Assembly: GCA_965223855.1 (NCBI GenBank)
Contig: CBDCXM010000009.1
Span: 1,568,001-1,632,000 of the forward strand
Source of the DNA: Candidatus Multivoradales bacterium
Lineage (GTDB): Bacteria > Acidobacteriota > Thermoanaerobaculia > Multivoradales > JAHEKO01
Length of the DNA stretch: 64,000 nt
Reading direction: 5' to 3'
Below the pieces are notes generated by a model. That model did not search any database. It saw nothing but the letters and a program-made list of their open reading frames with translations, and was not told the origin of the DNA. Positions 312-25,759 of this stretch are shown piece after piece (position 1 is the first letter of the stretch; the number at the start of each line of letters is the position of its first letter). Both the position numbers and the translations under genes were made by a program.

Positions 312-428
312 GATTCCACCTCCGATTGTTGGTGTTGAAGGTAGGTACGCTAGCACGCACGCCGGGATTCCCTGGGTGGGGGCGAGGTGCCGAGGGACGA
401 AGCGCCGAGGGACGAAGTGCACCGGCGG

Positions 429-467
429 TGAAGTGGCTCACGAACCGGTGGGAGCTCCGTCCGGCTC
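429..467 (+). repeat. Degenerate copy of the RAYT-element left-end motif
   Basis: TGAAGTGGCTCACGAACCGGTGGGAGCTCCGTCCGGCTC aligns gap-free with 24381-24419 (32/39 identical). Confidence 0.75.
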
Positions 468-499
468 ACACGATCTCGCACTTTCGGGCACGACGAGTG

Positions 500-549
500 C
501 CGTCCTCGAGAGGCCACCCTTCTTGCGAAGATGGCCACCTCGAGGACGG
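500..549. terminator. GC-rich hairpin, possible terminator of the 576-1577 gene
   Basis: CCGTCCTCGAG...CTCGAGGACGG inverted repeat just downstream of the minus-strand stop; no clear U-tract. Confidence 0.35.
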
Positions 550-575
550 GCGGTGCGCCAGTTGCTGCTCCGAGC

Positions 576-1577
576 CTAGGGGGTGAGCCTCCACCAGGTG
601 GCGAAACCGTCGTCACAGTCTCGGATGACCGCATGTTCCTGCGCGCTCATGCTCAGGCACTTGGCCGGAGTTCCGGCCGGTTGGGCGGTCGGGTGAATGC
701 GTCTGGTGCTGGGATCGAAGCGCCACGTGTTCTGTCCGGGGAAGTCGCTGCCGGGAGGGTTGATGTCTTCGTCGCAGGGGCGAGCTACCAGCAGGTGCTT
801 CCCGCCTCGGTGCCAGATCTCCTGAGTGTGCTCGGTGTCCTTGGCCCACGGAACCGTCACGCACTCGTCGCCGAAGACGATTCGACCGGGGCTGCGGAAC
901 GTCGGCAGCCGCGGCTCTTCGCACGGCCGAAGCTCGAATCCGCTCGGTGTCCTGGTGAGGCAGCGATCGTCGAGTCTGTCGTGCTCGCTGACCGGTCGGA
1001 TGAGTACTCCGTTCGTGGCCGGCACGACTTGAACCGGCTGCCCGCCAAGGTTGACGGTCCAGGCGGCGAGCCTGCGGTTCCCGCCGGGGAGTCTCTCGCT
1101 GTGGAGACTGGCCCAACTGAGTTCCCGGAAGCGTCCGTCGATCTCGGCGCGGACGAAGCTCCGGCCGTCCTCCGTGACGATCTCGATCGGCTGATTGCCG
1201 AGGTTGACCGTCCAGGCGGCGAGCCGTCGATCACCGGAAAGGCGATCCTTGTCGAGGCTCGCCCAGTTGAGTTCGCGCGTCTTGCCGTCGATCTCCGCTC
1301 TCAGGTACTGCTTCCCGTCCGGATCCCGGACGACGGAGACCCGCTGCATGCCGGTGTTGGTCGTGAAGGCGGCGAGCCTGCGGTCACCGGAGAGCTTGTC
1401 CCGGTCGAGACTGGCCCAGTTGAGCTCGCGCTCCGGTCCATCGTGCACCCGCAGGTAGACCTCAGATGCCGACACCGCCGTCGGCAGGAGAAGAAGTAGG
1501 ACGATTGCCCAGCGCAGGAGCCTCCGAGGTTCGGCGGCGGGCAGGGCGGCTGTGGTGTGGATGTCGGGCTTGGTCAC
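576..1577 (-). CDS. Secreted protein with three ~50-aa tandem repeats and a C-terminal ricin-B/beta-trefoil-like domain
   Basis: GTG at 1577 after GAGGAG; signal peptide (WAIVLLLLLPTAVSA); 3x REL(N/S)WASL..L.G.RRLAA; C-terminal C-L...C and W motifs resembling ricin-type lectin. Confidence 0.7.
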   Translation of the reverse strand: MTKPDIHTTAALPAAEPRRLLRWAIVLLLLLPTAVSASEVYLRVHDGPERELNWASLDRDKLSGDRRLAAFTTNTGMQRVSVVRDPDGKQYLRAEIDGKTRELNWASLDKDRLSGDRRLAAWTVNLGNQPIEIVTEDGRSFVRAEIDGRFRELSWASLHSERLPGGNRRLAAWTVNLGGQPVQVVPATNGVLIRPVSEHDRLDDRCLTRTPSGFELRPCEEPRLPTFRSPGRIVFGDECVTVPWAKDTEHTQEIWHRGGKHLLVARPCDEDINPPGSDFPGQNTWRFDPSTRRIHPTAQPAGTPAKCLSMSAQEHAVIRDCDDGFATWWRLTP

Positions 1578-1693
1578 GTCGTATCTCCTCTCGCGGGCCA
1601 ACGAGGCCGGAATTGGCCTTCTAGCTGCCCTAACGCAAGTCGGAGCGAGACGGGGCCGTGCCCTGATCTGGTGAGAGAGGTCGCTTCGTGGAT

Positions 1694-1820
1694 TGAAGTG
1701 CCGAACGCCTCGTGAGAACTGAGTGCAGCTCTCCGGCCGGTGGGGCTCGAGATGCAACGTTACCTGCCTTCAGGAATCGCAGGCACGCTTGTGCGGGGCC
1801 TTCTTGCCTTGCTGCGCCAG
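1694..1820 (+). mobile_element. Heavily deleted remnant of the RAYT-like element (left end plus transposase fragments)
   Basis: 1694-1735 matches 24381-24423 with one gap; followed by colinear fragments RYLPS, GTLVRG and LLRQ matching transposase RYLPS, GTLARG and YLLRQ. Confidence 0.65.
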
Positions 1821-2025
1821 AGGACCTGTCAGCCGGACCTCCCGGTCTCTGATCACGGAATCGGAGAGGAGTTCTGCCGTCTCCGCAGCCGCTCAGTCCG
1901 GGTGCGGGCGGTAGTTCTCGACTGGGCCTCGCCCTGCTCCGGTGCAGCGGCTTCGATGCTCACTGTCCTGGAGTCGGGGCGGGTCCGTTCACTTCCAGCA
2001 TTGACTTGCGAACTTGGAGGAAACG

Positions 2026-2481
2026 ATGTTCGAACAGCGACCCGAGTTGTACCTGATTCTCTTGACTGTGACATTGGCGATGGTGATCTCGTGCGCCGAA
2101 GATCCAAGGCCTACCCGGTCGAACCTGGACGCGGCCGACATTCGGCTTGCGCATCTCCCGACAGCCAGAGGTGTCGAGCGCTACCGATGGAATCTCGACA
2201 GCGCGCTACCTGCCGACTCGATGACAATCCGCGACCTCCAGATTGGTGAGCGGTACACAAAGGCGATCGAGCGCGACGAAGGCGGGGGTACCTGGGAGTG
2301 CTACGACTGCCCTGCGCAAAGCAGCGGGTGCACATGGATCGGGTACTGCACCGAGATCGACGAGTACGAGTCGTGGTGCACCTTCTATCCGGAGGTGGCC
2401 CTCCTCTCACCGTCGGTGACGAACTCGTCGCTTCAGACCAGTAACGGTGAAGCTACATCTTCTATGACGGTGAGAGTCTAG
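2026..2481 (+). CDS. Hypothetical Cys-rich lipoprotein
   Basis: ATG after GGAGG; hydrophobic stretch ending MVISC (lipobox-like); five further Cys. Confidence 0.6.
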   Translation: MFEQRPELYLILLTVTLAMVISCAEDPRPTRSNLDAADIRLAHLPTARGVERYRWNLDSALPADSMTIRDLQIGERYTKAIERDEGGGTWECYDCPAQSSGCTWIGYCTEIDEYESWCTFYPEVALLSPSVTNSSLQTSNGEATSSMTVRV

Positions 2482-2890
2482 CCCCGACGATCCAGAAGAC
2501 AGGATGGCTCTCCGAGCTGAAGAAGTCGAGCGACCATTCCGCAATCTGGGCTGAGCTCGACACCACGGTGAGACCGTGAAGAACTCTCCAGGAGTTGCGG
2601 TCGCCTAACGGTGGCCTTCGAGTTGCTTTGCGGGGAGTCACTCTTGATGCTTGTGCCTGTTCGAGGTCCCAGAGACGACTGTCCTCGCCCTTTGTTGAGG
2701 CAGCAACGTTGCCGATCTGGACGGCCTCAGCTCATCCCTCAACAGAGTCTCAACCTTCCGGCCCAGGCGTGCCTTCCCCAACATAGGGAACCGCCGGAGT
2801 CGAAGCAGGCTCCAGGAGGCCAAAGGACGCTCGAAGGCGAGGATGCCGGACCTAGGAGTCCCGCACGGATCCCGGGCCGGCCCGAGGGAA

Positions 2891-3142
2891 CTACCGAATC
2901 AGCTTGCGTCTAGCAGGCTTCTCCACGAACTCGACAGCAGAGTCGTCGCCCAGGGCCTTCAGGAGTTGCTTCTCAATGGACTCGTCGGAGGCCTCCACCA
3001 CATACAGTGCCGCAAGTTCCGGGTCGGTCACGTCGGCGAAGAGGCGGCGCGCTGTCAGAGCTCCACCCTCTGAGAGCTTCGTGAGCAAGTCCTCTCGAAC
3101 TTCAGGAGGTGTTTCGCTGAGGAACTTGAAGTGAACCGCCAT
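2891..3142 (-). CDS. Small protein resembling a stand-alone subtilisin propeptide / I9 inhibitor
   Basis: 83 aa, starts immediately after the S8 stop; alternating beta/alpha pattern ending AVEFVEKP, like S8 prodomain ends. Confidence 0.6.
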   Translation of the reverse strand: MAVHFKFLSETPPEVREDLLTKLSEGGALTARRLFADVTDPELAALYVVEASDESIEKQLLKALGDDSAVEFVEKPARRKLIR

Positions 3143-4477
3143 CTACTCGACGAGGCTAGCCAACGACGCCTCCAGATTCAACAGGCCATGACCGTAGCCC
3201 TCAGTCCAGGCGCCTCCCATTCCCCTCAGACGTGTGCAGGTCTCCACAAGTTGCCGCTTGACGCCGGCAGGGTCAAGGCTGGCGAACTTTGACATGACGA
3301 GGCTCGCGGCCGCCGCTACGTAGGGGGTCGCCATGGATGTGCCGCTCCATGCAGCGTAATTTGTCTCTCGCCGGTTCGCAATTCGCGACGCATAGCTGGG
3401 CAAAGTCGACAGGATGTTGGACCCTGGGGCGACCAGGTCGATGTGTTTGCCGGTGTTGGAAAAGCTCGAGCGCTGCATGGTCTCATCGATTGAGCCCACG
3501 GCGAGAACGCCATCATAGGCGGCAGGGTACTCGGTTGGGTTCCCTTCGTGGTACTCGTTTCCCATTGCTGCAACAGCGAGGATTCCCTCCTCTTCGAGCC
3601 TGCGGAAGAGCATCGCTTCTACCTGCGAATGGGATGTTCCACCGATGCTCAGGTTGACGACTCCAACATCCGCCGTTCGAGTCTCATGCAGGGCGGCGAA
3701 GTAGCGCTCAGCATCGACGTAGAACTGGCCGGACGGGTCCGGCTCGTCCTCGAAGATCTTCCAAGCTTTGATCTCGCAGCGCGCGGCACCTGAGATGCCC
3801 ACTGCATTGTTCACGTCTGCGGCCAGAATGCCTGCGACGTGGGTGCCGTGACCGATCAGATCCTCTGACCTCAGGCCTCGGTGGTGGTGCTCAGTCAGGC
3901 TCGAGAGCTCGGGGTGCTCGTCGTCGACTCCAGTATCGAGGACTGCAACGGCGCGACCTGGAGTGGCCTCCGCCTCGAAGAAGCGAATGGCTCGCAGACC
4001 CCACTGCAGATTCCGAAAGGGTTCGGGGCGAGCCCCTTGTCGAGCGCTCAGCCACCGCACGGGCAGTCTCTCGGCGAACTCGAAGGCATCGGAGCCTCTG
4101 AGCGCAGCCAGTGCTTCATCGGTGTCGGTGGCCGGATCGAGTTGGGCCACGCTGATTCCGGAAAGAGACTCGCTGTCCGAGTCGACCACGCTGGAAAGGA
4201 GATTCACGGTCTGCTCGGTGGCGTCAGCGGCTTGGAAGCGCCTTAGCCCAATCCTGCGTGCTGAGAATGGGGCGCTCATCTTGGAGAGGCCAGCGTTGGT
4301 TCTGAGATAGCGCAAGGGCTGCGCAACCTGCGCCGGCAGGCTCGCGGGCTTGATCGAGGAGAAGACCAGCGGCTTTCCGGTGAGGGCGGGCGCCACGGCA
4401 TCCGCCTTCACCTTCAAGACGATCTTTCCTCTCGAGGACTGCGGGCGGGTGCCTCTCGGTTGGGAGAAAGTCGGCAT
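3143..4477 (-). CDS. S8 family (subtilisin-like) serine peptidase, no signal peptide
   Basis: Catalytic motifs VAVLDTG, HGTHVAG, GTSMATP; oxyanion AAMGN. Confidence 0.95.
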   Translation of the reverse strand: MPTFSQPRGTRPQSSRGKIVLKVKADAVAPALTGKPLVFSSIKPASLPAQVAQPLRYLRTNAGLSKMSAPFSARRIGLRRFQAADATEQTVNLLSSVVDSDSESLSGISVAQLDPATDTDEALAALRGSDAFEFAERLPVRWLSARQGARPEPFRNLQWGLRAIRFFEAEATPGRAVAVLDTGVDDEHPELSSLTEHHHRGLRSEDLIGHGTHVAGILAADVNNAVGISGAARCEIKAWKIFEDEPDPSGQFYVDAERYFAALHETRTADVGVVNLSIGGTSHSQVEAMLFRRLEEEGILAVAAMGNEYHEGNPTEYPAAYDGVLAVGSIDETMQRSSFSNTGKHIDLVAPGSNILSTLPSYASRIANRRETNYAAWSGTSMATPYVAAAASLVMSKFASLDPAGVKRQLVETCTRLRGMGGAWTEGYGHGLLNLEASLASLVE

Positions 4478-4513
4478 TTAGAACTCCTGCGAAAATGGTT
4501 GGTCGTCCGTTCT

Positions 4514-5293
4514 CTACAGAGCTCGGGCGATGCGGATCCTGTTCCTGAGATCATCAAGTTCCAGGGATGCGTCCTTGGCGGCGGGAGCTTCCGACCCGAC
4601 ACCGGTGTGGCCGTCGTTCTGAATCGAGCCGATCACTTGTTCGACGGCGCCTAGTTGCTCGTCTTTGGACTTCTTGCGTTCCTCGTAGTCCTTCTTGATG
4701 CCGAGCGCGCCGGTGTATCCAGTCCAACCAGCACCCACGATGATGGCTTGGAGAAGGTCTCTTGCGAGAGCAGAAGCAAAGAAGGCGCCCAGAACCGCAT
4801 AGAAGAACGCGGCGACAGTGAACAAGCGCCAGCGCTCTCGATTGAGACTCTTTTCTAGCCTCGCCACCGCGGTGTTGAGCGCCTCGACCTCATCGGCGGC
4901 CGCTCCTGGCTTCGCCACAGCGAGCAGGCGCTGGTAGAGCAACTCGAGCCGCGCCCCACCGGCGTCGAGCCGAGCCTGTGCCGCGATGCCGGGAACGTTG
5001 CCGCCTATCAGCGAGAAGAGGGTGATCAGAGCACCCACCAATCCCAGTGCGGCATAGAAGCCCCCCTCGTGCCAACGAATCTCGTCGCCCTCGATCCAGT
5101 GAAAGAGAACGGTTCGGTTCTCAGAAGAGTCGGCCTTGTTGTCGTCGCTGAGTTGTTTCTCTTCCTCCGGTTCTTGCTGGGTAGTCACCAGAGGGGAGGC
5201 CTCCGGCGACGCTTCCGTCTGTGCAGTGACTTGTCCGGTTTGGGTGGCCACGAGGAAGACAACGGCCGCCAGGCATCGATACATGTTTGTCAT
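4514..5293 (-). CDS. Hypothetical membrane protein (signal peptide, 3-4 TM helices, coiled segments)
   Basis: AAGGAG RBS; hydrophobic segments FYAALGLVGALITLF and LFTVAAFFYAVLGAFFA...IIVGAGW. Confidence 0.75.
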   Translation of the reverse strand: MTNMYRCLAAVVFLVATQTGQVTAQTEASPEASPLVTTQQEPEEEKQLSDDNKADSSENRTVLFHWIEGDEIRWHEGGFYAALGLVGALITLFSLIGGNVPGIAAQARLDAGGARLELLYQRLLAVAKPGAAADEVEALNTAVARLEKSLNRERWRLFTVAAFFYAVLGAFFASALARDLLQAIIVGAGWTGYTGALGIKKDYEERKKSKDEQLGAVEQVIGSIQNDGHTGVGSEAPAAKDASLELDDLRNRIRIARAL

Positions 5294-5319
5294 CTCTCAA
5301 TCTCCTTCTTGGGGCCTGC

Positions 5320-6201
5320 CTATGGTTGGCTCGCGGCGGTGTTCCATGACTTGAGGTTCGACACGACGCGATTGTTGATGCGGACCGCTTGGTTCAAACC
5401 GCCGAGGCCCCCGGCGTGGATACCGACGACCTGCCTAGAGTTGCCGTCCTTTCTCCACAGAGGCCCGCCGCTTTGCCCCTTGTTCGTGTCCAAGGTGTAG
5501 CCCAGAGAGTTCGGCCGCAGGGTGGAGATGCGCCTCGCGTGCCACCACAACGTCCACTCGGGCTTGTCGTGGGGGTAGCCAGCCAGGTTGACGGAAGCTG
5601 ACTGGAGCTGAGCATCGGTGACTGTGCCGAACCCGAACCAGCCCAAAGAATGTCCGGGGGCCGACCCACCTGTGATGAGGATCGCTCCGTAGTCGAGTTC
5701 CGGATCTCGGTCACGCGTCCAACCCGCAACGCTTCTGAAGGTCCGTGCAGTGAGAGTCTCTTGAGCTTGACGATCTCCGCTCCGACCGGGCATGACGGCG
5801 ATACTTCTGGCCCACCCGCCATCGCGATGCGAGTAGACGCAGTGGCCAGCGGTCACGACCAGGCGTGGCCCGGCCAGCCAACCGGTGCCGATCTGGGTGG
5901 GGCCGGTCGGAAAGTCGATCTCCAGCGCGCAGATTGCTCGCCAAGGGTAGGCGCTGGTCGAACGGATCTCCTGTCGATCATCGCGGCCGAACACGGTCTT
6001 TGGCGTGATTGCTCGCGTTGAGTGGGCCAGCCGAACCCCGGCATCCAGCGCTCGACCGAGAAACTGCCGGAACTGGTCGGCCGGGCGATCGAACTCGATC
6101 ACGCTGCGATCGGCGGGCTCAATCTCGAGTCCGTTGGGTCCTGTGCTCGTATGGAGGTCTCGGCCTTGGCCGCTACTTCCGAGCCGGTAGCTGTGTTTCA
6201 C
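5320..6201 (-). CDS. V8/glutamyl-endopeptidase-like S1 serine protease
   Basis: VFGRDDR, YPWRAIC, TAGHC (His), DYG (Asp), GQSGGP (Ser); GTGA overlap with the upstream gene. Confidence 0.92.
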   Translation of the reverse strand: MKHSYRLGSSGQGRDLHTSTGPNGLEIEPADRSVIEFDRPADQFRQFLGRALDAGVRLAHSTRAITPKTVFGRDDRQEIRSTSAYPWRAICALEIDFPTGPTQIGTGWLAGPRLVVTAGHCVYSHRDGGWARSIAVMPGRSGDRQAQETLTARTFRSVAGWTRDRDPELDYGAILITGGSAPGHSLGWFGFGTVTDAQLQSASVNLAGYPHDKPEWTLWWHARRISTLRPNSLGYTLDTNKGQSGGPLWRKDGNSRQVVGIHAGGLGGLNQAVRINNRVVSNLKSWNTAASQP

Positions 6202-7403
6202 GAGGTGCTGCCCACGCTCGGGTCCTCGCAGCCGGCCTTTCCGCTCGAAGCGTCGTCGCAGGGTGACGGCTCGGTGGCAGCATCTTCGGCCTCCTCAGAG
6301 TCTTGACCGGTACTACCTTCGTTTCCTGCCTCAGAACCCTCCGTGTCGCCGTTCCCCGAGTCTGATCCGATCGTCTCGTTCTTGTCGGCAGAAGTGGATG
6401 AGGTTGAGGCCGTAGTGACCTCGGCCTTCTTGAACGGGTTGCTCGAGAAGCGGAACCCGATTCCTACAATGGCGTTGAGAGCGAAGGTCTCGTCGACGAG
6501 CTGGTCTGGAGTCAAGCTCTCCATCAGAGCCTGGCCCTCTTCGTAGATCCCCTTGAGCCGGGTCTGCTCGTGCCCGGCGGCACCCACGAAGAGGCTGACG
6601 TTGTCGCCGACGATCCACGAGAGGCCGGCGAATACGAGCCTCTTGTCGAGGTCTGCCCCGAGTCCGGCCGTGAAGTGCGGTCGCCCGGTTCGCTCGTTGA
6701 GATCTGCTGCCGAGGGAATGTAGCTGAACGCGATAGTCGGCTCGAAGTCGGCCCCTCCGCGATCCGCCTGTCGCGCGATCGTCAGGCCAGTGTCCTCGCT
6801 GCCCTTGGTGAAGTACCGCTCGTCTTCATCGGGAAGAAAGGAGAAGCCGTAGTGACTGAGCCACAGCCTGCTCTGTCCGCTCGAGAAGACGTACGTCCAG
6901 CTTCGCCCCTCCAGACCGAGACGCCGGATCTCGAGCTCGACTCGTTGCCCTTGCTCGAGACGGACCGATCCATCGAGCGCGACCTCGGTTCGAGACTTGA
7001 AGGAGTTGATCCGGGTGGTACAGCTCTCGTTCGGGCTCTGAGTGAGAGCCGTTGTCAACGCCGCACGCATCGCAGACTCTGAGTTGCCGCTGCCTGCCTT
7101 GGCAAGTGCGTCGAGAATGGACTTGCAGGCGGCGTCCAGCGTCTTGCTCTTCTTCAGTGCTGCGGTCTCGCGCTCGAAGGAGTCGAGAGAGAGCGGCCGC
7201 AAGAGACCGAACTTCTTCAGATCGAACTCGTACCGTCCGCCAGGCAGCCGGTTGGTGATCTTGAAAGTCAGTTCGCTCCCGCTGTCGACGAGGAAGGTGC
7301 GGCTGCCGTCGGCGAGATCTAGAACGTACTCCGTGGCAGCTCCCGGCGAAGCCAGTGCGGCTCCCAACACCAGGACTGCCAATCCCAATCGCTTCGTTGC
7401 CAT
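6198..7403 (-). CDS. Secreted hypothetical protein with beta-rich C-terminal half and acidic low-complexity tail
   Basis: GGAGG RBS; signal peptide (LAVLVLGAALASPGAA); 401-aa ORF. Confidence 0.75.
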   Translation of the reverse strand: MATKRLGLAVLVLGAALASPGAATEYVLDLADGSRTFLVDSGSELTFKITNRLPGGRYEFDLKKFGLLRPLSLDSFERETAALKKSKTLDAACKSILDALAKAGSGNSESAMRAALTTALTQSPNESCTTRINSFKSRTEVALDGSVRLEQGQRVELEIRRLGLEGRSWTYVFSSGQSRLWLSHYGFSFLPDEDERYFTKGSEDTGLTIARQADRGGADFEPTIAFSYIPSAADLNERTGRPHFTAGLGADLDKRLVFAGLSWIVGDNVSLFVGAAGHEQTRLKGIYEEGQALMESLTPDQLVDETFALNAIVGIGFRFSSNPFKKAEVTTASTSSTSADKNETIGSDSGNGDTEGSEAGNEGSTGQDSEEAEDAATEPSPCDDASSGKAGCEDPSVGSTS

Positions 7404-7502
7404 CTCCAGGTACCTCCGTAAGTTCCGGGCCCGCTTGGGCCCTGGGTTCGGAGGTACTGACGGACCCGGAGTGGCGCTCTACGAAGGTAGGCGCAGAATC
7501 GA

Positions 7503-8354: not shown

Positions 8355-8415
8355 GGGGAAGGCTCCAGCCTGGCGGCTAGTGAGTTGACAGCCCTGTGCA
8401 CTCGATAGACGGACA

Positions 8416-9219: not shown

Positions 9220-9330
9220 GTTGCCTCGTAGAAGTCCGGTCAGGGTCCGTCAATGGACACAGAGTGAGAAGGGCAATCGATTCGAGAGTTGCGGAATGTG
9301 CCTGAGGTCGATTTTTCCAAATAGACTACC

Positions 9331-12378: not shown

Positions 12379-12458
12379 TGGGTGCAATCGGTAAGTGCAG
12401 GCTGCTCGGGTCTCTGCAGGCACGGTCAACAATAGATGAAGTTAGAAGCTAGAAAGGA

Positions 12459-15202: not shown

Positions 15203-15277
15203 GCCCTCCTTTCTTGGGGTGTCACCTGTGTCGAAGGGTCCTCTTCCGTCTCTCTGTCAAGAGAGGTGTGGGCTGAG

Positions 15278-15440
15278 ATGTCCGACTGCTATGACGAAGA
15301 AGAGCTGGAACGGAGAGTTCAACAGGAGGTCGACGCCTTGACGGACGCTGAGATCCGGACGTTCCGTGCTAGTCGGAACAGCATGGAGCACTGGATGTAT
15401 CGAACCTCGGGAGCGATTGGAAGAGTAATCTCGCCCCACA
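15278..15440 (+). pseudogene. Short ORF whose reading frame runs into an element end motif (probably truncated)
   Basis: GAGG RBS, protein-like MSDCYDEEELERRVQQEVDAL...; at 15441 it becomes the element motif. Confidence 0.45.
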
Positions 15441-15871
15441 TGAAGTGCCACACGAATCCGTGCGGAATCCCAATGGTTGTCTGCAGGCGACTGCCGCGCC
15501 TTCTTCGGGATCGCGTTGGTCGACTGACTGCGCGGGATGAAGTGGGATGAAGTGCCCGCCGGATGAAGTGCGCCCGGATGAAGCGGGGGAGGGTCGCTGA
15601 GTTCCCCGCGGGGTGCGTCCGGCCCGGACTGGGCTTCGTGCCGCTCAGGGCCTAGGAACAGTCGACTCTGCGACTCAAGGCGCCGGCGAGAGCCGGTCGG
15701 AGTCGCTGCGCCCGTTTCTCGCCAGGATCGCCCTGGCCGGCCGGAACTGCTCTCAGGAGGTACCCAAGGAGCCCCTGAACGAGCTTCGGGTGGCGCGTCT
15801 CAGCGAGGAGTCACCAAAGCGCTCGCTGCCTCCGGAAGTGCCACACGAATCCGCGAGCCAATCCGCGAGCC
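15441..15871 (+). mobile_element. Non-autonomous internally deleted copy of the RAYT-like element
   Basis: 15441-15462 is identical to 24381-24402; 15583-15656 matches transposase 3' end 25265-25338 (72/74); downstream homology continues to ~15825; second left-type motif at 15835-15853. Confidence 0.9.
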
Positions 15872-15947
15872 CACTCGGCCAGCACACCTCCATCCCGTGA
15901 CATCGCGGGATTCATCTACGCCCCATGATCCCTGGGGACGAGACAGG

Positions 15948-17957: not shown

Positions 17958-17981
17958 GCACCCTCCCGGCCAAGGGTGCCC

Positions 17982-18884
17982 TCAGGCACCCTGCTGGTCG
18001 CTCCCCTCGAGTGCCCGGTGGGTGGTCCAATCGAGCGAGGACGGTGTTTTGCAAAGCCCGTTCAGCAACTCGAGTTTCGGCGGGTGCAGGACGGAGCGAA
18101 ACTTCATCTGAAGGTCCGTGTGCTCACGGCTCTCGAGCCGATACCAGCGCGGGCGCGACTCACAGTAGTCCTTCACCGGCGTCTTCATCACGACATTTCT
18201 GGACACCTGGAAGACATCCTGGGCGGTGCGAGTTGCTTGCGAGGATGTGCTGCACAGTCTGTCCAGAAAGACCAGGTCCGGTGGGTCGGTCACAGCCGCG
18301 AACTGGGACTGGATGGTGTTGTGGGATTCGCTTTCCCACCTGTACCAGCGTGGACGAGAAGCACAGTAGTCTTCGATCGAAGTCCCCATCGCGGCAGCAC
18401 GAATCTTCAGGAGTCGCGAAGCGATGGCTTTCCACGTCCCCTTGTCTTCGAGCGACGTCTTCATCGCCTCGGTGCCGCAGTCGGGATCGCCGTCGTTGGC
18501 AAGGTGGTAGCCGGCAATGAACCCCCCGGCCACCACGACGGTGGAGATGACGAGGATGACGGTGCTGTCGTCGCCGCTGAACAGGAGCAAGAGGGGCGCC
18601 GGGAGGCCGTACAGGAGATTGCCTCTCGGCCGATACGGGTCGAGCTCGTAGTTCGGGTCGGCCTTCTCGACTCCTATCGAGTCGTGTTCCGAGGTGTAGG
18701 TATAGAGCTGAGGCCCACACATGGCCCGAAGGACGACATCGTTGCGAAAACCGAACTCGGGGACCGTGGTTTCTTCGAGAAACCGGTCGGCGGTGTGCGA
18801 GTCATTCCAGTCAGGCGACAAGAACCAGCCGAGTCCTGCCCCCGCGGCGAAGGTCAGGGCCAGGTAGAGAAGAACGTATCTCAC
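17982..18884 (-). CDS. Hypothetical membrane/secreted protein with a duplicated Cys-bounded C-terminal domain
   Basis: N-terminal hydrophobic helix, central TM, two DYC.SRPRWYR.ES..H...C repeats. Confidence 0.65.
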   Translation of the reverse strand: MRYVLLYLALTFAAGAGLGWFLSPDWNDSHTADRFLEETTVPEFGFRNDVVLRAMCGPQLYTYTSEHDSIGVEKADPNYELDPYRPRGNLLYGLPAPLLLLFSGDDSTVILVISTVVVAGGFIAGYHLANDGDPDCGTEAMKTSLEDKGTWKAIASRLLKIRAAAMGTSIEDYCASRPRWYRWESESHNTIQSQFAAVTDPPDLVFLDRLCSTSSQATRTAQDVFQVSRNVVMKTPVKDYCESRPRWYRLESREHTDLQMKFRSVLHPPKLELLNGLCKTPSSLDWTTHRALEGSDQQGA

Positions 18885-19258
18885 GCGATCTCACGGCGCA
18901 CAAAGAGGCGCCGCCTCGCTTTCCTGATCATGTGTTTCGAGTCTACCCGACAGCCAGCCAGGCTGACGCCCTCAACCTGAATCGGGTCGTCCCGGTGCGT
19001 TTCGGGCAGGCCCTTCGAACAGAACTATGAGATTCCGGACTCGGGTTGGACGAACCCTTCGCCCCCTCGATCGACGAGGTGAAGGCCAAGGTCCTGTGCT
19101 ACTGCAGGGGCTTGCTGGACAAGGCCGACGACTGGTCCGAGCTTGGCGGTGCTCCGAGGCCGAGGAAGGTGCCCTCCTGGTACTCGTGTGGGCTCCTCCA
19201 TGTGGGAAATCTGCGGCGCGAGTCCGTCTAGTGGATTGGCCCACGAAAGGAGAGTTCT

Positions 19259-19630
19259 ATGTCCGAAGAACAGACGATCGATTGCAACGAGACGGAACCC
19301 GTCCCCTGCGAAGACCACCAGACCCGTGGCTGGTACGCATGGAACAACCGGATGCCGGGAGGCCCCGGTGGATTCCACGTGGTCGGCGAAGTTGAGGTGG
19401 GCAATCCCGGAATCATCGCCATCCTCACGCCGAAGGTCCCACAGGGAATCAACCCCCAGATCCTGCTCCTCGACCTGCATCTCCGCCAGCGGCCCGGAGT
19501 CTGGCCGCGGGTCGTGACCTGGGCAGGGGCGCGATTCGACTCGGCCATTCCTCATCCGCCCTACACGCAGGTCGTCGTCTTCTGCGGCGACAAGGAGATC
19601 GCCCACATTCCGGTCGAAGACGTTCACTGA
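19259..19630 (+). CDS. Hypothetical protein (WYAWNNRMPGGP...PQGINPQILLLDL)
   Basis: AAGGAG RBS; high-GC3 codon usage; globular beta-rich sequence. Confidence 0.8.
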   Translation: MSEEQTIDCNETEPVPCEDHQTRGWYAWNNRMPGGPGGFHVVGEVEVGNPGIIAILTPKVPQGINPQILLLDLHLRQRPGVWPRVVTWAGARFDSAIPHPPYTQVVVFCGDKEIAHIPVEDVH

Positions 19631-20012
19631 GCTCGGATCGTGACGAGGCACTGGTGAGCCTGAGTCCCTGGAATGGGGCCCGGGAGCGCGGGCCTCTCTA
19701 GATCTCGGCTCGACTTTCGAGTCCACCGGCGGCTTGCCGCCGGTGAGCCTCGAGGGGCCTCTCGCCATCGGGGCCGGTCCGTTACTCCGGCAGGTCTCGT
19801 CGGACCAGCCTAAGGCTGGCGCCGGCCCTCGCAGGACGAGTTGCACCCCAAGGGAACCCAACCGCCTCAGGGGTTCCCCTGCCCGGAAGTCGCAGGGCGC
19901 CTCCATGCCTGGGAATCGCGCCTGGGAATCGCAGGTCACCTCCACGCGCCATCGGCCCCTGCGAACCCTCTGGTTGGACGGCTCCAGCCCTTGCCGTGTA
20001 GCGTTCAGGTCC

Positions 20013-21107
20013 ATGGAAGCTGAGACGCCCGGGTCGGGCGAACCTGCTGTCGTGGAGGAGGGAGAGTCCAACGGGCGACGCCATGTTGTTCTGCTACTCC
20101 ACGGGATCCGAACGACTGCGGCATGGCAGGAGCGGGTCCGTGCCGGTCTGGAGCACGAGGGCAACCTCGAGGTCCTGACGGTTCGTTACGGAGTGTTCGA
20201 TCTCGTTCGGTTCCTCGCGCCGGAGCTGCTGGGCCTCAGGAGGCAACCTGTCGAGCGGATGGCTCGAGAGCTCAGGGCAGCCAGGACGCAGTATCCGAAC
20301 GCGAGGCTCTCGGTGATCGCCCACAGCTTCGGAACCTGGATCATGGGGGAGGTCCTGGAGGACAACCCGGACATTCGACTGGACCGGCTCGTGCTCTGCG
20401 GCTCGGTCCTCGAGCGAGGGTATCGCTGGGACAAGCTGAGCGCTCAGCTCGCTCACACGGTCAGCAACGATGTGGGAACCCGTGACCCGTGGCCCCTCGT
20501 GGCCGAGAAACTGGGGTGGGGCTACGGCGCGACCGGTCTGACAGGTTTCGGTGCAGTGGGTGTGAGAGACCGCTTCCACCGGTTCGGGCACAGCGAGTTT
20601 CTGACGACGGAGTTTGCCCGGACCTACTGGCGCCCCTGGCTTGTCGACGGCGATTGGACCGCCTCCGCATGGGACGTGGAGCGGCCCGCGGCGCCCTGGT
20701 GGTTCAGCGCGATCGCGGCGGCCCCGATCAAGCTTCTGGCCGTGGCGTTGCTGGCGTTGGCGCTTCTCGTCGGAGTGAGAGAGACGTTCCTCGAGGCCGG
20801 CGCCAGGCCCGACACGAGGCCCGACACCAGGGGCGGTTTCGAACTCCCACCGGAGAAGCCGGCTGCTGAGCGGACCATCACGGGAGTCGTCACGGCACCC
20901 GCCGGCGTGGATCGATCGACTCTCACCGTCGAGATCAACTACGGCCAGCTCGTGGAGCGGGTGGGTGATGACGGTCGATTCGTGATCGAACTCGATGCGG
21001 GAATGGAGTCCTCAGTGACGGTCCGAGTTCTGGATGCGGACGGAAACGCTCTCTACGACAACTTCCACTCGACACGTCACGATGGCTGGGAGCTGGTTCT
21101 TCGGTGA
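20013..21107 (+). CDS. Alpha/beta-hydrolase-fold protein with C-terminal TM and Ig/carboxypeptidase-regulatory-like domain
   Basis: Likely ATG at 20013; LLHGIRT, IAHSFG, LCGS, DPWP, GHSEF; TM LLAVALLALALLVGV. Confidence 0.8.
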   Translation: MEAETPGSGEPAVVEEGESNGRRHVVLLLHGIRTTAAWQERVRAGLEHEGNLEVLTVRYGVFDLVRFLAPELLGLRRQPVERMARELRAARTQYPNARLSVIAHSFGTWIMGEVLEDNPDIRLDRLVLCGSVLERGYRWDKLSAQLAHTVSNDVGTRDPWPLVAEKLGWGYGATGLTGFGAVGVRDRFHRFGHSEFLTTEFARTYWRPWLVDGDWTASAWDVERPAAPWWFSAIAAAPIKLLAVALLALALLVGVRETFLEAGARPDTRPDTRGGFELPPEKPAAERTITGVVTAPAGVDRSTLTVEINYGQLVERVGDDGRFVIELDAGMESSVTVRVLDADGNALYDNFHSTRHDGWELVLR

Positions 21108-22175
21108 CTAGGTGCTGGGCGGCACTGGTGCAACAGCCGGAGCCGCGCCCCGCTCCAGAGCCTCGAGGAACTCGTCTACCTCCGTGCGAAGGCGTTGGCC
21201 CTCTCCAACCAAAGAGGCGTCGAGTTCTTCGGCTGTTCTCTCGATCGCCTCGCGTCTCGCCTTCCGCTCGGAGCGCTTGGGCGGCGAGAGGCACCAGTCT
21301 GCAAGGCTGTTCTTGAGCTCGTTGGCGCTCGCAGCTTCCGATTCCCCCAGCAGGTAGGGGTTGTGGAAGGCACGAACGGACGCTTTGAGTCCGAGGAGCG
21401 CTCCCTCGAGACTTGAGCCGTCGAGCCCCTTGAGCTCAGGAGCGATGGTGTCGGCGCTTGTCTCCCAGGAACCCAGCGCATCGTTGTAGTCGACGATCGG
21501 CTCTTCGAAGTTGGGCAGGTAGGCACAGTTCTCGAGGACCTTGGGTGCGTTGCGGCGAAACGCGACCTCCAGCTCCTTGACCGCAAACAGGTACTCGGAC
21601 AGGAGCGCGCGGAGCTCGCGATGGAACTCGAGCTGGGTCTGCCTCTCCTCGAAGATCTGTCGCAAGAGCTCTGCCTGTACGGCGCTGTCCCGGCCGTTCC
21701 TCAGCTCCTGGAGGAGAGTCGCGAGGAGCTCTCCTTGTTTGGCCGAGTCCTGTTCGAGCACGGCTCGAAGGACTCCGACCTCGTTGACCAGCTCCTCCGC
21801 AGTCAGTGCCTGGCGGGCCTGAGGGTTGCTCGCGGCCAGGACTATGTTCGTCGCGTCGGCCCGGGGGATCACCGCGCGGAGGTTGAGAGGCCAAGCCACG
21901 ACACAGCGGGCTTCGACACCCTGAACCTGCAGTCCGACCACCTCTCCCGGGTCGTATCGCTTCGGATCTTGTCCGGGGAGTGGCTCGAGCCTCAGAACGT
22001 ACTGACCGCCCTGCTTCGTCGAGGTCGTGTCCCCGCCGCCCGAGATGGTGAGTCCCGAGACACCGCAGCCGTCCTTGCTCAGTACCGTGCCGGTCAGGAC
22101 GGTCGCCGGGGCTGGAGCGAGGGCCGCCAAGCCGACCAAGCATGCGACTCCGAAGACTCTTCTGGTCTCCATCAA
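21108..22175 (-). CDS. Secreted protein with N-terminal carboxypeptidase-regulatory-like beta domain and helical C-terminus
   Basis: Signal peptide; LTGTVLSKDG..VSGLTIS...GGQYVL; coiled-coil-rich remainder. Confidence 0.7.
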   Translation of the reverse strand: MMETRRVFGVACLVGLAALAPAPATVLTGTVLSKDGCGVSGLTISGGGDTTSTKQGGQYVLRLEPLPGQDPKRYDPGEVVGLQVQGVEARCVVAWPLNLRAVIPRADATNIVLAASNPQARQALTAEELVNEVGVLRAVLEQDSAKQGELLATLLQELRNGRDSAVQAELLRQIFEERQTQLEFHRELRALLSEYLFAVKELEVAFRRNAPKVLENCAYLPNFEEPIVDYNDALGSWETSADTIAPELKGLDGSSLEGALLGLKASVRAFHNPYLLGESEAASANELKNSLADWCLSPPKRSERKARREAIERTAEELDASLVGEGQRLRTEVDEFLEALERGAAPAVAPVPPST

Positions 22176-22180
22176 CTCAA

Positions 22181-22594
22181 CTACCCGTCGTCGCGGAGCA
22201 GCACCAGGCTCTCGGAAGTCGAAGTCGACTGCAGTTCGATTCGAGCCCGGTCCGGAAAGAAGATGCCCGTGTAGGTCTCGTCGCCGCCGGCCCTTTGGAC
22301 GGTCATCCGGATCTGGAGGTTGTTGACCGTACCGTCGACGGGTGATTCGGTTACGTTGCCGTTGCCGTCGTTGACGAATTCATTGCCGAAGATCGGGTAG
22401 GTCACGGCCGGACAATCGTCGCAAGCCAGGTCGAAGCCTCGCAGCGGATTCCCTTCGACCAACCAGCTGTTGTTGATGTCCGACGGAACCTGAGGTGGAG
22501 TCGTCGGTGTCGGGTTGGTGTCGTCGCAGTTGCCAGCATAGACAACCAGGAGCAGGGGGAGCACTACGAGACATCGTGTGAGCGGTCGAGTCAA
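22181..22594 (-). CDS. Hypothetical lipoprotein
   Basis: GGAGG RBS; LLLVVYAGNC lipobox-like; P/T linker; beta-rich domain. Confidence 0.7.
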   Translation of the reverse strand: MTRPLTRCLVVLPLLLVVYAGNCDDTNPTPTTPPQVPSDINNSWLVEGNPLRGFDLACDDCPAVTYPIFGNEFVNDGNGNVTESPVDGTVNNLQIRMTVQRAGGDETYTGIFFPDRARIELQSTSTSESLVLLRDDG

Positions 22595-22624
22595 GACAGC
22601 ACCTCCGTTGCGGGTAGATATTTG

Positions 22625-23188
22625 AAAACGCTAGCACATGGGTTCGGCGAGGGGGCTGGGGGCTTCCCTCCGGGAGCTCTGGACATCCAAGGGGCGCCTC
22701 CCCTTCACCCTCTCCGGAGCCCGAGAGCGAGTGGCGCTCGCACGTGCGACGGATGGGGGGGTCGTCGACGAGGCTCCGAAGGAGGTCCTCGCAAGGGGAG
22801 CCATCCTCCGGCAGCATTCCGGCGCGCCGGTAGAAGCCGGCTACGCTCCTCGTGATTGCCTACCACAAAGCTAGGGAGGATCTGAGGCGGGGGAGGGTAG
22901 CCGACTTCTCGGCGGGGTGCGTTGGGCCTGGGTTCGGGTTCGTGCTCCCAGAGGAACGGCGACTTCTGGAGTTCGGAGAATAGGTCTCCGGCACGGGCCG
23001 GACGGCGGAGCTCGTCCGGGACCGGGCAAGAGGACTGCCTTGCCTGAGAGGCAAAGTCCAGAGAGCCGCGGCGCCGGCCCCAAGATGGTACGGAGTGGGG
23101 GGCGGCCGCTGTCGAGGGAACTGGCAGGTCGCGAAGTACCGTCCTAGTCGCTGCTGGAGTGCCTTCTCAGGAACCCTGTGGCACTTCA
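22625..23188 (+). mobile_element. Decayed remnant of the RAYT-like element (3' half of the transposase, downstream segment, right end)
   Basis: Fragments LAHG.GEG, RERVAL, DEAPKEVLARGAILRQH and EAGYA; GAGGATCTGAGGCGGGGGAGGG matches ~25254-25275; ends CCTTCTCAGGAACCCTGTGGCACTTCA like 25541-25568. Confidence 0.8.
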
Positions 23189-23261
23189 ATGTGAGGGTCG
23201 TGCGGCAGTTCCAGGTGGGCCGCCGTGCGCCATGTATGGCCCATCCATAGGCTGCGCAAGT

Positions 23262-23549
23262 TCATGGCCCTGACGTCACGCCCTTGTAGCGAAGATAGCG
23301 TGAGCAAACGAGCAGAAGTGTGCCGATGAGATAGCTGAGACCCCTCACGATTGTCGTGAACTCTACTTGCGACTCGAGACTCTCCAAGCCGTCACCAGCC
23401 CACAGGCGTCTGCTGTTCGCGTCTCTGAAGGTCATTGCGGTCCCCGACCGATCGGGAGCTTCTCCTACTTGATCTTGGAGAGCTCCGATCTGAAGCCAAG
23501 CGTCGTCGAGCTTGGACTCTACGCGATAGAAGCCGTCCTTGAGTTGCAT
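23262..23549 (-). pseudogene. Probable 3' fragment of a membrane-protein gene
   Basis: Ends in TM-like IVRGLSYLIGTLLLVCSRY; overlapped by read-through of the upstream ORF. Confidence 0.3.
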
Positions 23550-24300
23550 ATCCCTCAGAGAGCCCTCGACAAAGATCTGCCAACCAGCCGCGCCAAGCAG
23601 AAGACTCGGTCCCGAGAAGCTCGAGCAGCAACCGGGTGCGCTCCTGGCGCTTGTCTTCCTCGAGCGGTGGCTGGGCGTCGCTTGCGATCGGGGGCGCCGC
23701 CTTATCGCGATAAGAGTCGCCTTTCTTCTTGAGGGCCACCCATCTGGAGCGAATGGCCCTTTCAGAGCTGAACCACCCTCGAAAGCCCATACCGCCTACG
23801 AGCACTAGGTAGATCACCCCGAGGGCAAGAACAGCGAGGACGCCGGGTAGCGGTTCTAGAACGAACGGGAAGACGAGCGGAAGCAAAAGGGGGATGGAGG
23901 TGGTGAATACTCCAAGTGCCAGGAACACGATGCTCTGAGGCTTGGTGTAGCCCATGTAGGGGGACGTTCGGTAACGACACCAGTCGCGCTCCCAGTTGGA
24001 CTTCTTGGTTACCTCCAGATAGGTCGTGAGAATCCTTAGCATTTTTGAGAGGTTGTGACCCAGAAGAAAGATGAGAAAGAGGGTCACTTGAAGAAGGGCT
24101 GTGAGTGACAGCCTGTATGCCCCTATTGGCGAACCTGAGGTCTTGACGTCGTTGACACTGGGTTCAGGGAGGGTCCATGCAACCATCACTCCGAAGATGG
24201 TGACTGCCAAAGTGGTGAGCAGGAACCTCTGGTTGACCAGCTGGTTGACTTCGAGGTGCAGCTTTGCCTTGTCGGCTTTGTTGGGTCCCTTGAGCTTCAT
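23392..24300 (-). CDS. 4-TM hypothetical membrane protein (C-terminal ~100 aa possibly read-through)
   Basis: ATG at 24300 after GGAGGTGCCA; EVNQLVNQRFLLTTLAVTIFG; four TM helices; more AT-rich than the core. Confidence 0.7.
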   Translation of the reverse strand: MKLKGPNKADKAKLHLEVNQLVNQRFLLTTLAVTIFGVMVAWTLPEPSVNDVKTSGSPIGAYRLSLTALLQVTLFLIFLLGHNLSKMLRILTTYLEVTKKSNWERDWCRYRTSPYMGYTKPQSIVFLALGVFTTSIPLLLPLVFPFVLEPLPGVLAVLALGVIYLVLVGGMGFRGWFSSERAIRSRWVALKKKGDSYRDKAAPPIASDAQPPLEEDKRQERTRLLLELLGTESSAWRGWLADLCRGLSEGYATQGRLLSRRVQARRRLASDRSSPRSSRRSSRSVGDRNDLQRREQQTPVGW

Positions 24301-24380
24301 TGGCACCTCCATGTCCGGAGTCGTGAGGCCCCTCATTGTGTCGCATCCCCACGATCACTCAAGCTGCTCCGAGGACTTCC

Positions 24381-25655
24381 TGAAGTGCCACACGAATCCG
24401 TGAGAACTCCGTGCGGCTCTCCGTCTAGGAGGGCATGGGACGCAAGCTTCGCTACCTGCCCTCGCAAGCCCTCGTAGAAGTCACCTGCCGCGTGATCCAG
24501 CGGCGCTTTCTGCTCCGGCCGTCTCCGGTACTCAACGAGATCATCGTCGGCACCCTGGCCCGCGGGCAGAGGCGCTACGGGATGAGGCTGTGCGGGTTCG
24601 TCTACCTGTCGAACCATTGTCACCTGCTGCTCTATCCAACGGACGCCAAGCAGCTCTCCGACTTCATGCGCTACATCAACTCCAAGATCGCGCGCGAGGT
24701 CGGGCGGCTCCACGACTGGAGAGAGAAGGTCTGGGGGCGGCGCTACGTGGACATTGAAGTCTCCCAGGAACCCGAGGCCCAGATCCGCCGTCTTCGCTAT
24801 CTCCTTCGACAGGGCGTCAAGGAAGGCCTCGTCGCGTCGCCGAAGCACTGGCCGGGAGCCTCTTCGACCAAGGCGCTGCTCCAGGGTGAAGAGCTAGAAG
24901 GCGTTTGGATCGACCGCACGGAGCAGTTCAAGGCCTATGAGCGAGGAGAAGCGAATCCGGATGCGCTCTTCACTTCTCGAGAACGAGTCAGGCTGTCCCC
25001 GTTGCCTTGCTGGGAGCACGAACCCGAGGGCTACTGGCGTTCGGAAGTCCGACGCATGGTGAAGGAGATCGAGGAAGAGGCTCCCAAGAACGTTCTCGGC
25101 AGGGAGGCCATCCTTGCCCAACACCCGCACGATCGGCCCAGCACGCCCGCGAACCGCAGCCCAGCGCCACGCTTCCACGCGATCGAAGGAAGCGTGCGCC
25201 GGGCGCTAGAGGTGGGCTATGCCCTCATCGTCCTCGCCTACCGGCAGGCGAGCGAGGATCAGAGGCGGGGGAGGGCCGCTGAGTTCCCCGCGGGGTGCTT
25301 CCGGCCCGGACTGGGCTTCGTGCCGCTCAGGGCCTAGGCGCGGCTGAAATCCGGACCCGGGTTGTCGGCGAGAGCCGGATGGCGAAGCTGTGCCCGGCGG
25401 TCTCCAGAATGACTCCGGCCGGCGGAAACTGCGCTCAGAAGGTCCCTGAGGACTGTCTGAACGCGCCCCTGCCGGCGCTTCTCAGGGGGGAACTACCAAA
25501 TCGCTCCCAGCGAGCGCCTCTCTTGGGCTGTCGTTAGAACCCTTCTCAGGAAGCGTGTGGCACCTCCATGCGGGGGGTCTCCATGCGGGCCGGGGGGGGG
25601 CGGCGACCGATTCATCTCATCTGGCGCTTCTCATGAGGATTCGTGTGGCACCTCC
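24381..25655 (+). mobile_element. Intact RAYT-like HUH element bounded by inverted ~27-bp end motifs
   Basis: Left TGAAGTGCCACACGAATCCGTGAGAA (24381); inverted copies at 25541-25570 and 25627-25655 (CTTCTCATGAGGATTCGTGTGGCACCTCC). Confidence 0.85.
24435..25337 (+). CDS. Y1 HUH transposase, REP-associated tyrosine transposase (RAYT/TnpA-REP)-like
   Basis: AGGAGG RBS; VEVTCR, FVYLSNHCHLLL (HUH), VWGRRY, LRYLLRQGVKEGLVASPKHWPG (catalytic Tyr helix). Confidence 0.92.
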   Translation: MGRKLRYLPSQALVEVTCRVIQRRFLLRPSPVLNEIIVGTLARGQRRYGMRLCGFVYLSNHCHLLLYPTDAKQLSDFMRYINSKIAREVGRLHDWREKVWGRRYVDIEVSQEPEAQIRRLRYLLRQGVKEGLVASPKHWPGASSTKALLQGEELEGVWIDRTEQFKAYERGEANPDALFTSRERVRLSPLPCWEHEPEGYWRSEVRRMVKEIEEEAPKNVLGREAILAQHPHDRPSTPANRSPAPRFHAIEGSVRRALEVGYALIVLAYRQASEDQRRGRAAEFPAGCFRPGLGFVPLRA

Positions 25656-25759
25656 TGTCTGGGGGCACCGCAGCCTAACAACGCGACGCCTGTTCCTATC
25701 CCCGACACTGCTAGCATCCGGTCTGGTTCAAACTGGGAAGGCCAGAGGGGATGAGTGAG

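Follow-up and report, generated by a model that had tools for sequence, protein, structure and literature searches.

Can a Y1 transposase of the HUH type collect unrelated genes at one chromosomal site in the way that an integron does? This question is raised by a 64,000-nt stretch of the genome of Candidatus Multivoradales bacterium (G000:C9:1568001-1632000, referred to here as the window; the assembly, G000, has 4.52 Mb in 9 contigs and 68% G+C). An earlier note, made from the letters alone, had described in this window one intact Y1 transposase gene, a short motif recurring in both orientations, and unrelated genes lying between the motif copies, and had proposed that enzyme and motif together build an integron-like array. 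We found that the motif is, with high confidence, the terminal inverted repeat (TIR) of a family of TIR-bounded Y1 insertion elements. As to the array, we lean toward a pile-up, in which whole elements inserted into a mosaic accessory region and then decayed, and the evidence slightly favors an array that needs no cargo-moving activity of the enzyme. According to this reading, the genes between the element pieces are island genes lying between separate insertions, not cassettes that were each captured at a motif.

The element, its ends and its relatives

The intact transposase gene occupies positions 24435..25337 of the window on the + strand and encodes 300 amino acids, as the earlier note had stated. 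Its product matched the Pfam family Y1_Tnp (PF01797) at 30.1 bits (cut-off 23, E 5.7e-7). In an alignment of 38 homologues, H61 and H63 of the H61-x-H63 motif and Y122 are invariant, Q126 is nearly so, and the tyrosine motif reads RYLLxQGxKE (YLLxQ). Conservation in this alignment spans all 300 residues; Pfam reports Y1_Tnp alone and no helix-turn-helix (HTH) domain, and fold searches with the whole model were dominated by the N-terminal domain. The AlphaFold model (pLDDT 86.4; Foldseek search, E 4e-6) was closest to E. coli TnpA-REP (4ER8; Z 15.0, root-mean-square deviation 2.4, 150 aligned residues), followed by the TnpA proteins of IS608 (Z 9.2) and ISDra2. The predicted structure supports a RAYT-like fold and membership in the Y1 superfamily. 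The NCBIfam model REP_Tyr_transpos (NF047646) scored 53.2 bits on the protein, under its cut-off of 80. A large protein collection held 1243 homologues, many of them labeled RayT by JGI, and the named records with relatives of the transposase are metagenome-assembled genomes of Thermoanaerobaculia/Acidobacteriota.

Inverted copies of the motif flank the gene, in agreement with the earlier description. The left copy lies at 24381..24410 (+, 26.1 bits), an inner right copy at 25540..25568 (-, 22.6 bits), and an outer, second right copy at 25627..25656 (-, 24.3 bits), where the G+C content changes (25600-25750). When the window was scanned by nhmmer with a TIR profile, the copies at 24381+, 15440+, 15834+, 25568- and 25656- scored 21.6-26.1 bits, as compared to 3.3-9.9 bits for the best scores of 20 shuffles. 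The 15-nt core GTGCCACACGAATCC was found five times at no more than two mismatches (15445+, 15838+, 24385+, 25549- and 25637-), with 0.14 copies expected and none of 100 shuffles reaching five. No match of at least 14 bits was present at 30-64 kb of the window, which bears out the earlier remark that the core half is free of the motif.

Comparison of six copies of clade A, one of the three transposase clades described below, placed the element boundaries. Homology between them starts at (A/G)(A/G)GTGCCAC... on the left and stops at ...GTGGCACCT on the right, corresponding to 24381 and to the inner right copy in the intact element. Because this homology stops at the outer edge of the motif, the motif is the true TIR of a 1.2-1.3 kb unit. 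The TIRs are ~17-30 bp long with the consensus AGGTGCC-R-NNN-GAAT, and the unit consists of a TIR, a leader of ~35 nt, the gene for the 300-amino-acid Y1/HUH protein, a 3' region of ~200 nt, and one or two inverted TIRs, for a total of ~1.2-1.3 kb. Eight end sequences folded as single-stranded DNA gave z values of -0.76 to +1.42 relative to shuffles, and no hairpin was detected at any of these eight ends; thus, the ends are not palindromes of the repetitive extragenic palindrome (REP) type. Directly before the start codon, at 24415-24434, lies a short stem-loop with a CGTCT-containing loop, which recurs at the same place in other copies with a stem that varies by clade (CTCC/GGAG, CGTCT/AGACG or CCCT/AGGG). 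A hairpin at the ribosome-binding site of IS200 regulates translation, and by analogy the stem-loop may control translation of the transposase.

The element belongs to a multi-copy family. A tblastn search of G000 detected 20 full-length transposase copies, 55-90% identical, plus fragments. Contig C4 repeats ~7 kb of C9 (G000:C9:88151-94932), transposase copy included, at 93-97% identity, which is either assembly redundancy or a strain variant; thus, the genome carries 19 distinct full paralogues, not 20. Upstream of each copy lies a version of the motif particular to it, which recurs in inverted form downstream. A maximum-likelihood tree of the transposases resolved three well-supported clades, and the TIR cores differ by clade, being ACACGAATCC-like, GGGTGAATAG-like (with AGGYGAATGG relatives), or ACAGGAATAC-like. 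This congruence implies that enzyme and end diverged together and, along with the position at which homology stops, it upholds the earlier proposal that enzyme and motif belong to each other. Over the 4.5 Mb of G000, the clade-A motif gave 28 matches of at least 20 bits as compared to 1.3 in shuffles. Fifteen of these are the seeds flanking clade-A genes and 13 are non-seed matches; one seed, in the coding end of an ABC ATPase gene, is probably a look-alike. The motif is thus low in copy number and tied to its genes.

Outside G000, matches were found in 13 of the 121 genomes of a class survey, with more than one match in 12 of those and up to 19. In a separate sample of 31 relatives, G000 included, transposase DNA was matched in 20 (each of the two tallies takes in one genome flagged unpublished). 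At 12 of 31 scorable loci of relatives, the best inverted match was a TIR of the AGGTGCC/AGGTGTC type, mostly located 50-135 nt upstream of the ATG and ~210-280 nt downstream of the stop codon, and distant family members in genome G116 have sharp TIRs of ~40 nt. By Pfam-type matches, the mobilome of G000 contains two rve-type and zero DDE_Tnp_1 genes. Element copies at G000:C9:2336435, C9:532309 and C9:998834 lie ~2-6 kb from a phage-integrase-type or rve-type gene, and the family tends toward mobile or accessory regions. If the enzyme moves itself only, it represents an ordinary, neglected insertion-element family that dominates the G000 mobilome as far as this has been sampled.

A domesticated RAYT/REP-type system, that is, a host-serving enzyme maintaining dispersed short repeats with a cellular role, would also be compatible with the TnpA-REP-like fold and with the JGI name RayT for relatives. 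Three tandem solo TIRs in the apbE-nqrF spacer of a core operon point the same way. This spacer cluster (L014:1757-1880) is absent from three congeners, and no transposase remnant was found near it. Within apbE of the same nqr operon (L014:1175-1195, G000:C2:169674), an exact TIR core with an AGGTGCC edge lies in frame, and three congeners have 16 other bases, equal in length, at this place. The domesticated reading is contradicted by the presence of 19 paralogues instead of one gene, by the mere 13 non-seed motif matches in the genome, by ends that are not palindromic, by an NF047646 score below the cut-off, by a tyrosine motif of the YLLxQ and not the Y...NP type, and by the patchy distribution in the class. 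Copy number and the lack of a dispersed repeat population largely refute it, and we consider it most improbable. Of the earlier description of a RAYT-like enzyme with dispersed end motifs, the fold holds, and the lone RAYT gives way to a family of paralogues.

Element pieces and the genes between them

Six pieces of the element lie in the window. One is intact; the five wrecks comprise a pair of left ends, a copy with an internal deletion, a solo TIR, and a right half. Relic 1 (429..467, +) is a degenerate left TIR with leader and without a transposase remnant, 33 of its 39 nt being identical to 24381-24419 (score 43). Relic 2 (1694..1771, +) retains the left TIR, the leader, and ~10 first codons; it aligned to 24381-24463 (score 48) and adjoins a G+C change-point near 1600. 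Relic 1 was below threshold in both motif scans and relic 2 also failed them, while the shuffle maxima of alignments like theirs were 27-30. Among the plus-strand copies listed in the earlier note, those at 15441, 15834 and 24381 are therefore strong, and those at 429 and 1694 owe their recognition to alignment with the left end. A candidate right-type TIR directly after relic 2, with which it would form a miniature element of ~100 bp, scored 3.3 bits, inside the noise, and was rejected.

Relic 3 joins a left TIR with an exact 15-nt core (15441..15470, +, 24.8 bits) to the transposase C-terminus (amino acids 268-300) and the 3' untranslated region (15580..15824, +, aligned to 25262-25506, score 196). 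By tblastn, the coding remnant spans 15554-15652, corresponding to amino acids 268-300. The right TIR of relic 3 is missing, and approximately where it would be expected lies the solo left-type TIR (15834..15862, +, 21.6 bits), whose leader homology ends at 23 nt. Relic 4 comprises C-terminal transposase fragments detected by tblastn (22761..22944, +), with 22817 closing the first (22761-22817, amino acids 212-230) and 22846-22944 forming the second (amino acids 264-296); the stretch 22824-22945 aligns to 25196-25323 of the intact copy. A right TIR follows at 23164..23188 (-). As for the inverted copies, those at 25540-25568 and 25627-25656 are strong, and that of relic 4 is weak by profile (8.4 bits, within the span of the shuffle bests) and is supported by a 36-nt alignment to the intact right end (score 42 versus a null maximum of 27).

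Two other copies proposed earlier were lost on inspection. The partial one at 24301 scored 3.0 bits and consists of 11 nt overlapping the ribosome-binding site and start of the neighboring membrane protein gene, and the weak one at 19885-19945 (score 32, null maximum 30) could not be told from chance. All three transposase relics that had been reported were recovered, with remnants at 1694, 15580 and 22761. Because three of the five non-intact pieces keep transposase coding remnants, they represent wrecks of whole elements and not cassette sites. The six pieces in one orientation support repeated activity of the element at this locus.

Two single genes are enclosed by consecutive pieces. Between relics 1 and 2 lies an orphan gene (576..1577, -) for a secreted protein of 333 amino acids, with a signal-like N-terminus and three repeats of ~51 amino acids (153 nt); it had no Pfam match, and the homologue search returned itself alone. 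Between relic 4 and the intact element lies a gene (23392..24300, -) for a membrane protein of 302 amino acids with about four hydrophobic segments by hydropathy. This protein, too, had no Pfam match, and its homologues at E <=0.001 number 13, its own copy included, the other 12 being 188-211 amino acids long with ~60% coverage. One orphan and one member of a rare family, each alone between two pieces, are what would be expected if the HUH enzyme recombined single genes at the motif, with one motif per cassette, as the integron-like reading holds. However, the motif intervals are irregular (1.3, 13.7, 0.4, 7.3 and 1.2 kb) and contain genes in both orientations, and the two single-gene intervals are bounded differently, left-left for 576-1577 and right-left for 23392-24300. 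The transposase remnants in the pieces and the lack of folded structure in the motif also oppose it, as does the lack of an integrase or attI-like organization: G000 has five PF00589 tyrosine-recombinase genes, the nearest at C9:1292735, ~275 kb from the window start. We thus regard single-gene capture at the motif as highly unlikely. What stands of the earlier proposal of repeated insertion at one locus is the repeated activity of the element; the integron-like gathering of genes is not supported.

The pieces are embedded in DNA with a G+C content of 59-66% (window 1-30 kb), as compared to ~70% in the remainder. Window 1-20000 and the 18.5 kb upstream of it were compared with four congeners: the former gave no DNA match except one of 161 nt, and the latter no collinear match, the longest single match being 753 nt. 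Of 22000-27500, compared with 30 relatives that are all of other species, the transposase part alone matched any of them. Synteny with the congener G002 begins at 28857, the stop codon of a conserved gene (28857..29856, -) that is the first one common with the congener and marks the right edge of the accessory region. This region spans at least 47 kb and is common to none of the searched congeners (window 20001-21999 left out). Because accessory DNA continues upstream of the window, the first motif copy is not the island edge for which it had been taken; non-syntenic DNA extends for 18.5 kb or more beyond the window on the upstream side and to 28856 on the other, and the change-point at ~1600 lies near the second copy.

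Pfam families were detected in 3 of 21 open reading frames of the island (subtilase, trypsin-like, and CHAT-TPR). Block B of the island (window 3143-12378) carries a subtilase, a trypsin-like protease, and a TPR-CHAT protein of 1015 amino acids. A search of the island for defense systems with PADLOC returned generic protease matches alone, and neither tRNA genes nor Rfam families were found in it. A 60-nt stretch (L013:14536-14596) had dozens of 80-90% matches in all four congeners. At 49264-49311 and 55993-56040, the window has similar stretches coding for (E/A)DGFESGDTSAWS, apparently a short, conserved peptide tag common to many genes of the genus.

Outside many TIRs, we observed stutters, that is, tandem repeats of 10-18 nt that combine local flank with the outer half of the TIR. 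The last copy ends in ...GGTGCC (or GGTGTC, GGCCTC), and the clade-specific core follows immediately. A recurring suffix of at least 10 nt was detected by script at 4 of 12 left ends truly located and at the right ends of four distinct elements, and two more stuttered left ends (C8:737563 and C9:3183558) were found by eye. In the window, a tandem stutter of CCGAGGGACGAAG[C/T]G units was read outside relic 1 (380..428, +) and one of GGATGAAGTG(C) units at 15528..15582 (+); a further stutter directly adjoins the outer side of the intact element's inner right TIR. The one at 15528-15582 runs from the left-end region of relic 3 straight into transposase codon ~268, where the sequence resembles a TIR edge. 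In G002, a contig (L066, G002:C138:11500-14034) ends inside tandem partial left ends, at least two, consisting of TIR, leader, and ~19 codons. They are joined after GAGGTCACC inside the gene and precede a full transposase gene, between which and the conserved neighbor gene no right TIR is present.

The relic deletion and the stutter junctions point to one nick site. From these junctions, we infer that the enzyme would nick and rejoin one strand at the outer TIR boundary, between ...GGTGCC and the core. Misfired nick-and-rejoin events could then give rise to tandem stutters and to deletions ending at look-alike sites inside the gene. The putative strand-specific nick beside the end is modeled on IS200/IS605, which are single-strand "peel and paste" Y1 transposons. 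The pile-up would follow from repeated insertion of whole elements into a permissive mosaic region and their subsequent decay. With 19 paralogues in three clades, each with its cognate end, G000 offers a natural series for studying such elements.

Common orientation and compositional seams

Several observations weigh against a pile-up of independent insertions, and orientation, seams, flank G+C, and a repeated unit in G116 all agree with elements that take an active part in joining DNA blocks. First, the six element pieces in the window share one orientation, for which the chance is 0.03 if they are independent, and in the genomes of the class survey 16 of 17 adjacent pairs within 10 kb are co-oriented, many of these pairs not being independent of each other. 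Such a common orientation is not predicted by independent random insertions. Replication-strand bias was considered as its cause and rejected for G000, since by the GC skew of contig C9 six loci run with the leading strand and five are opposed.

Second, the pieces coincide with seams in base composition. Binary segmentation of G+C over -20 to +50 kb, with five bin sizes from 50 to 300 nt, yielded five stable change-points at ~1600, 15500, 25600, 29900 and 33300. The first three coincide with relic 2 (range 1550-1600), relic 3 (15400-15600), and the right end of the intact copy, at its outer right TIR. With element DNA masked, the first two stay in place, and the third shifts to ~22300, adjoining relic 4. 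Across 23 elements or relics, the median difference in G+C between 3-kb flanks was 0.029 as compared to 0.014 at random sites (p 5e-5), and 8 of the 23 exceeded the 95th percentile of the genome-wide null; the test was weaker against low-GC sites only (p 0.04). Because the seams coincide with element pieces, a weaker version of the earlier proposal, in which the elements help join DNA blocks, stays live.

Third, comparable arrangements occur elsewhere. In G002, a Y1 element in the same orientation lies ~146 nt from the stop codon of the same conserved gene that bounds the region in the window (28857-29856). G116 contains two arrays of ~20-30 kb, one all + and one all - (C2:4459500-4490000, C1:2124000-2143999; L063+L064, L065), one of them at a contig end. 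In these arrays, two types of Y1 element, at 85-97% DNA identity, lie among unique DNA with orphans and an SbcCD-like pair, and both arrays contain, at 94%, a unit in which two elements enclose 1.3 kb of unique DNA. Arrays with a single orientation are located at compositional seams in two genomes, which belong to one order and to different families. Finally, the available sequence and Logan contigs showed neither a cleavage site nor an excision product or an empty site.

These arrangements would be accounted for by element-mediated accretion, according to which the copies are joints where foreign blocks were stitched in head to tail. This could proceed by recombination of a resident copy with a copy on incoming circular DNA, either homologous or transposase-catalyzed, as in IS26 translocatable units, or by mobilization of composites of the form "left end ... 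cargo ... right end"; both routes would leave directly oriented copies between unrelated blocks. The shared orientation of window pieces and adjacent pairs, the change-points at relics 2 and 3 and at the intact copy's right end, the eight elements with extreme flank differences, the G002 element next to the identical conserved gene, and the element-cargo-element unit of G116 are all in its favor. However, the copies in G116 end sharply at their TIRs and are flanked by unrelated DNA, which is what ordinary insertion leaves behind. A search with the flanks of 20 paralogues found no duplicated flank next to any clade-A element in G000. It returned non-element flank repeats of 610 nt (93%) and 1.1 kb (76%) near the clade-C cluster, and a few further short or low-identity (65-85%) flank matches, none beside a clade-A element. 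Moreover, the seam coincidence loses strength against the low-GC null, and close inverted copies would be unstable, so that the coherence of orientation could reflect survivorship.

Read data speak against accretion as well. They consisted of low-depth Logan contigs from four runs of one study, none of which joins across the intact element; thus, no excision or empty site was seen in them, nor any junction or circle. A Logan joint from 22677 to 24381, with 22-nt sides and depth 2, and a joint that "goes back 45" at the right end, also at depth 2, are too weak for use. The interval 25621-28024 is without Logan contig coverage in all four runs, which proves nothing, and no RNA data set was listed as containing the stretch. 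Taking both sides together, accretion is a possibility to which we give distinctly less credence than to the pile-up. We are equally hesitant about the idea that the TIR ends would act as conservative, strand-specific recombination sites, nicked between GGTGCC and the core, which stitch foreign blocks at a chromosomal hotspot; this appears doubtful. Insertion and decay of whole elements in a mosaic region remains the reading that we prefer.

Comparison with known systems

To our knowledge, TIR-associated Y1 transposases have a name but have not been the subject of bench work. Judged by motif, the closest described kind would be the TIRtron with its TIRYT. These TIR-associated tyrosine transposases were described by Di Nocera, De Gregorio & Rocco 2013 (PMC3733652) and discussed as TnpAY1 subclass 2.1 by Quentin et al. 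2018 (PMC6006769). TIRtrons resemble the present element in having a RAYT-like Y1 gene with TIRs instead of palindromes, in TIRs that are also solo, dimeric, or clustered, and in occurring in Acidobacteria among others. These papers report a GGGGWSAS motif in the TIR of many, though not all, TIRYTs, a C-terminal HTH-like domain in subclass 2.1, and the tyrosine motif Y...NP for class 2 RAYTs (Table 1 of PMC6006769). In contrast, the TIR described here is AGGTGCC-R-NNN-GAAT, the tyrosine motif is YLLxQ, and the 300-amino-acid protein has a conserved C-terminal half and no Pfam HTH. Further differences from the TIRtrons portrayed there are the up to 19 diverged paralogues per genome, TIR cores that are particular to each clade, and same-orientation arrays.

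The REPtron shares with our element the best structural match (TnpA-REP, 4ER8), a gene bracketed by an inverted cognate repeat, and repeats that are multiplied at the ends. REPtrons (PMC5581495) typically have one gene copy per genome, a large dispersed repeat population, and palindromic REPs. The element in the window differs from them by the absence of hairpins and of a GTAG foot, by a multi-copy gene with a small repeat population, and by an NF047646 score below the cut-off. IS200/IS605 elements (IS608, ISDra2) likewise combine HUH and Tyr...Q motifs in small multi-copy mobile units. However, they have subterminal hairpins, no TIRs, and transposases of ~130-150 amino acids, whereas the ends here are TIRs without a fold signal, and orientation on contig C9 showed no bias with respect to replication. 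Copies of IS200/IS605 elements within one genome are near-identical; the paralogues of G000 are at most 90% identical in protein, and the copies of G116 are 85-97% identical in DNA.

Integrons and ISCR/IS91 elements have in common with this locus the locus-specific build-up of unrelated genes, and ISCR/IS91, which capture genes by a rolling circle, also use HUH chemistry. Unlike integrons, the locus has no IntI, attI, or attC, and its cargo intervals are irregular; unlike ISCR/IS91, the enzyme is Y1 and not Y2, and there is no ori/ter asymmetry. For accretion, the functional analogy is IS26. We know of no Y1 enzyme for which an IS26-like reaction has been shown. In the translocatable-unit arrays of IS26 (Harmer, Moran & Hall 2014, PMC4196232), directly oriented copies lie among unrelated DNA segments, as they do in the window. 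IS26 has an IS6-family DDE transposase, while the enzyme here is Y1/HUH. By this analogy, modules with same-orientation copies and stuttered ends at seams might tentatively be seen as the HUH counterpart of such arrays, a view that we hold with considerable reserve. If it is true that the enzyme joins DNA blocks, islands like those of IS26 could be built in an environmental phylum by a second route whose chemistry is unrelated.

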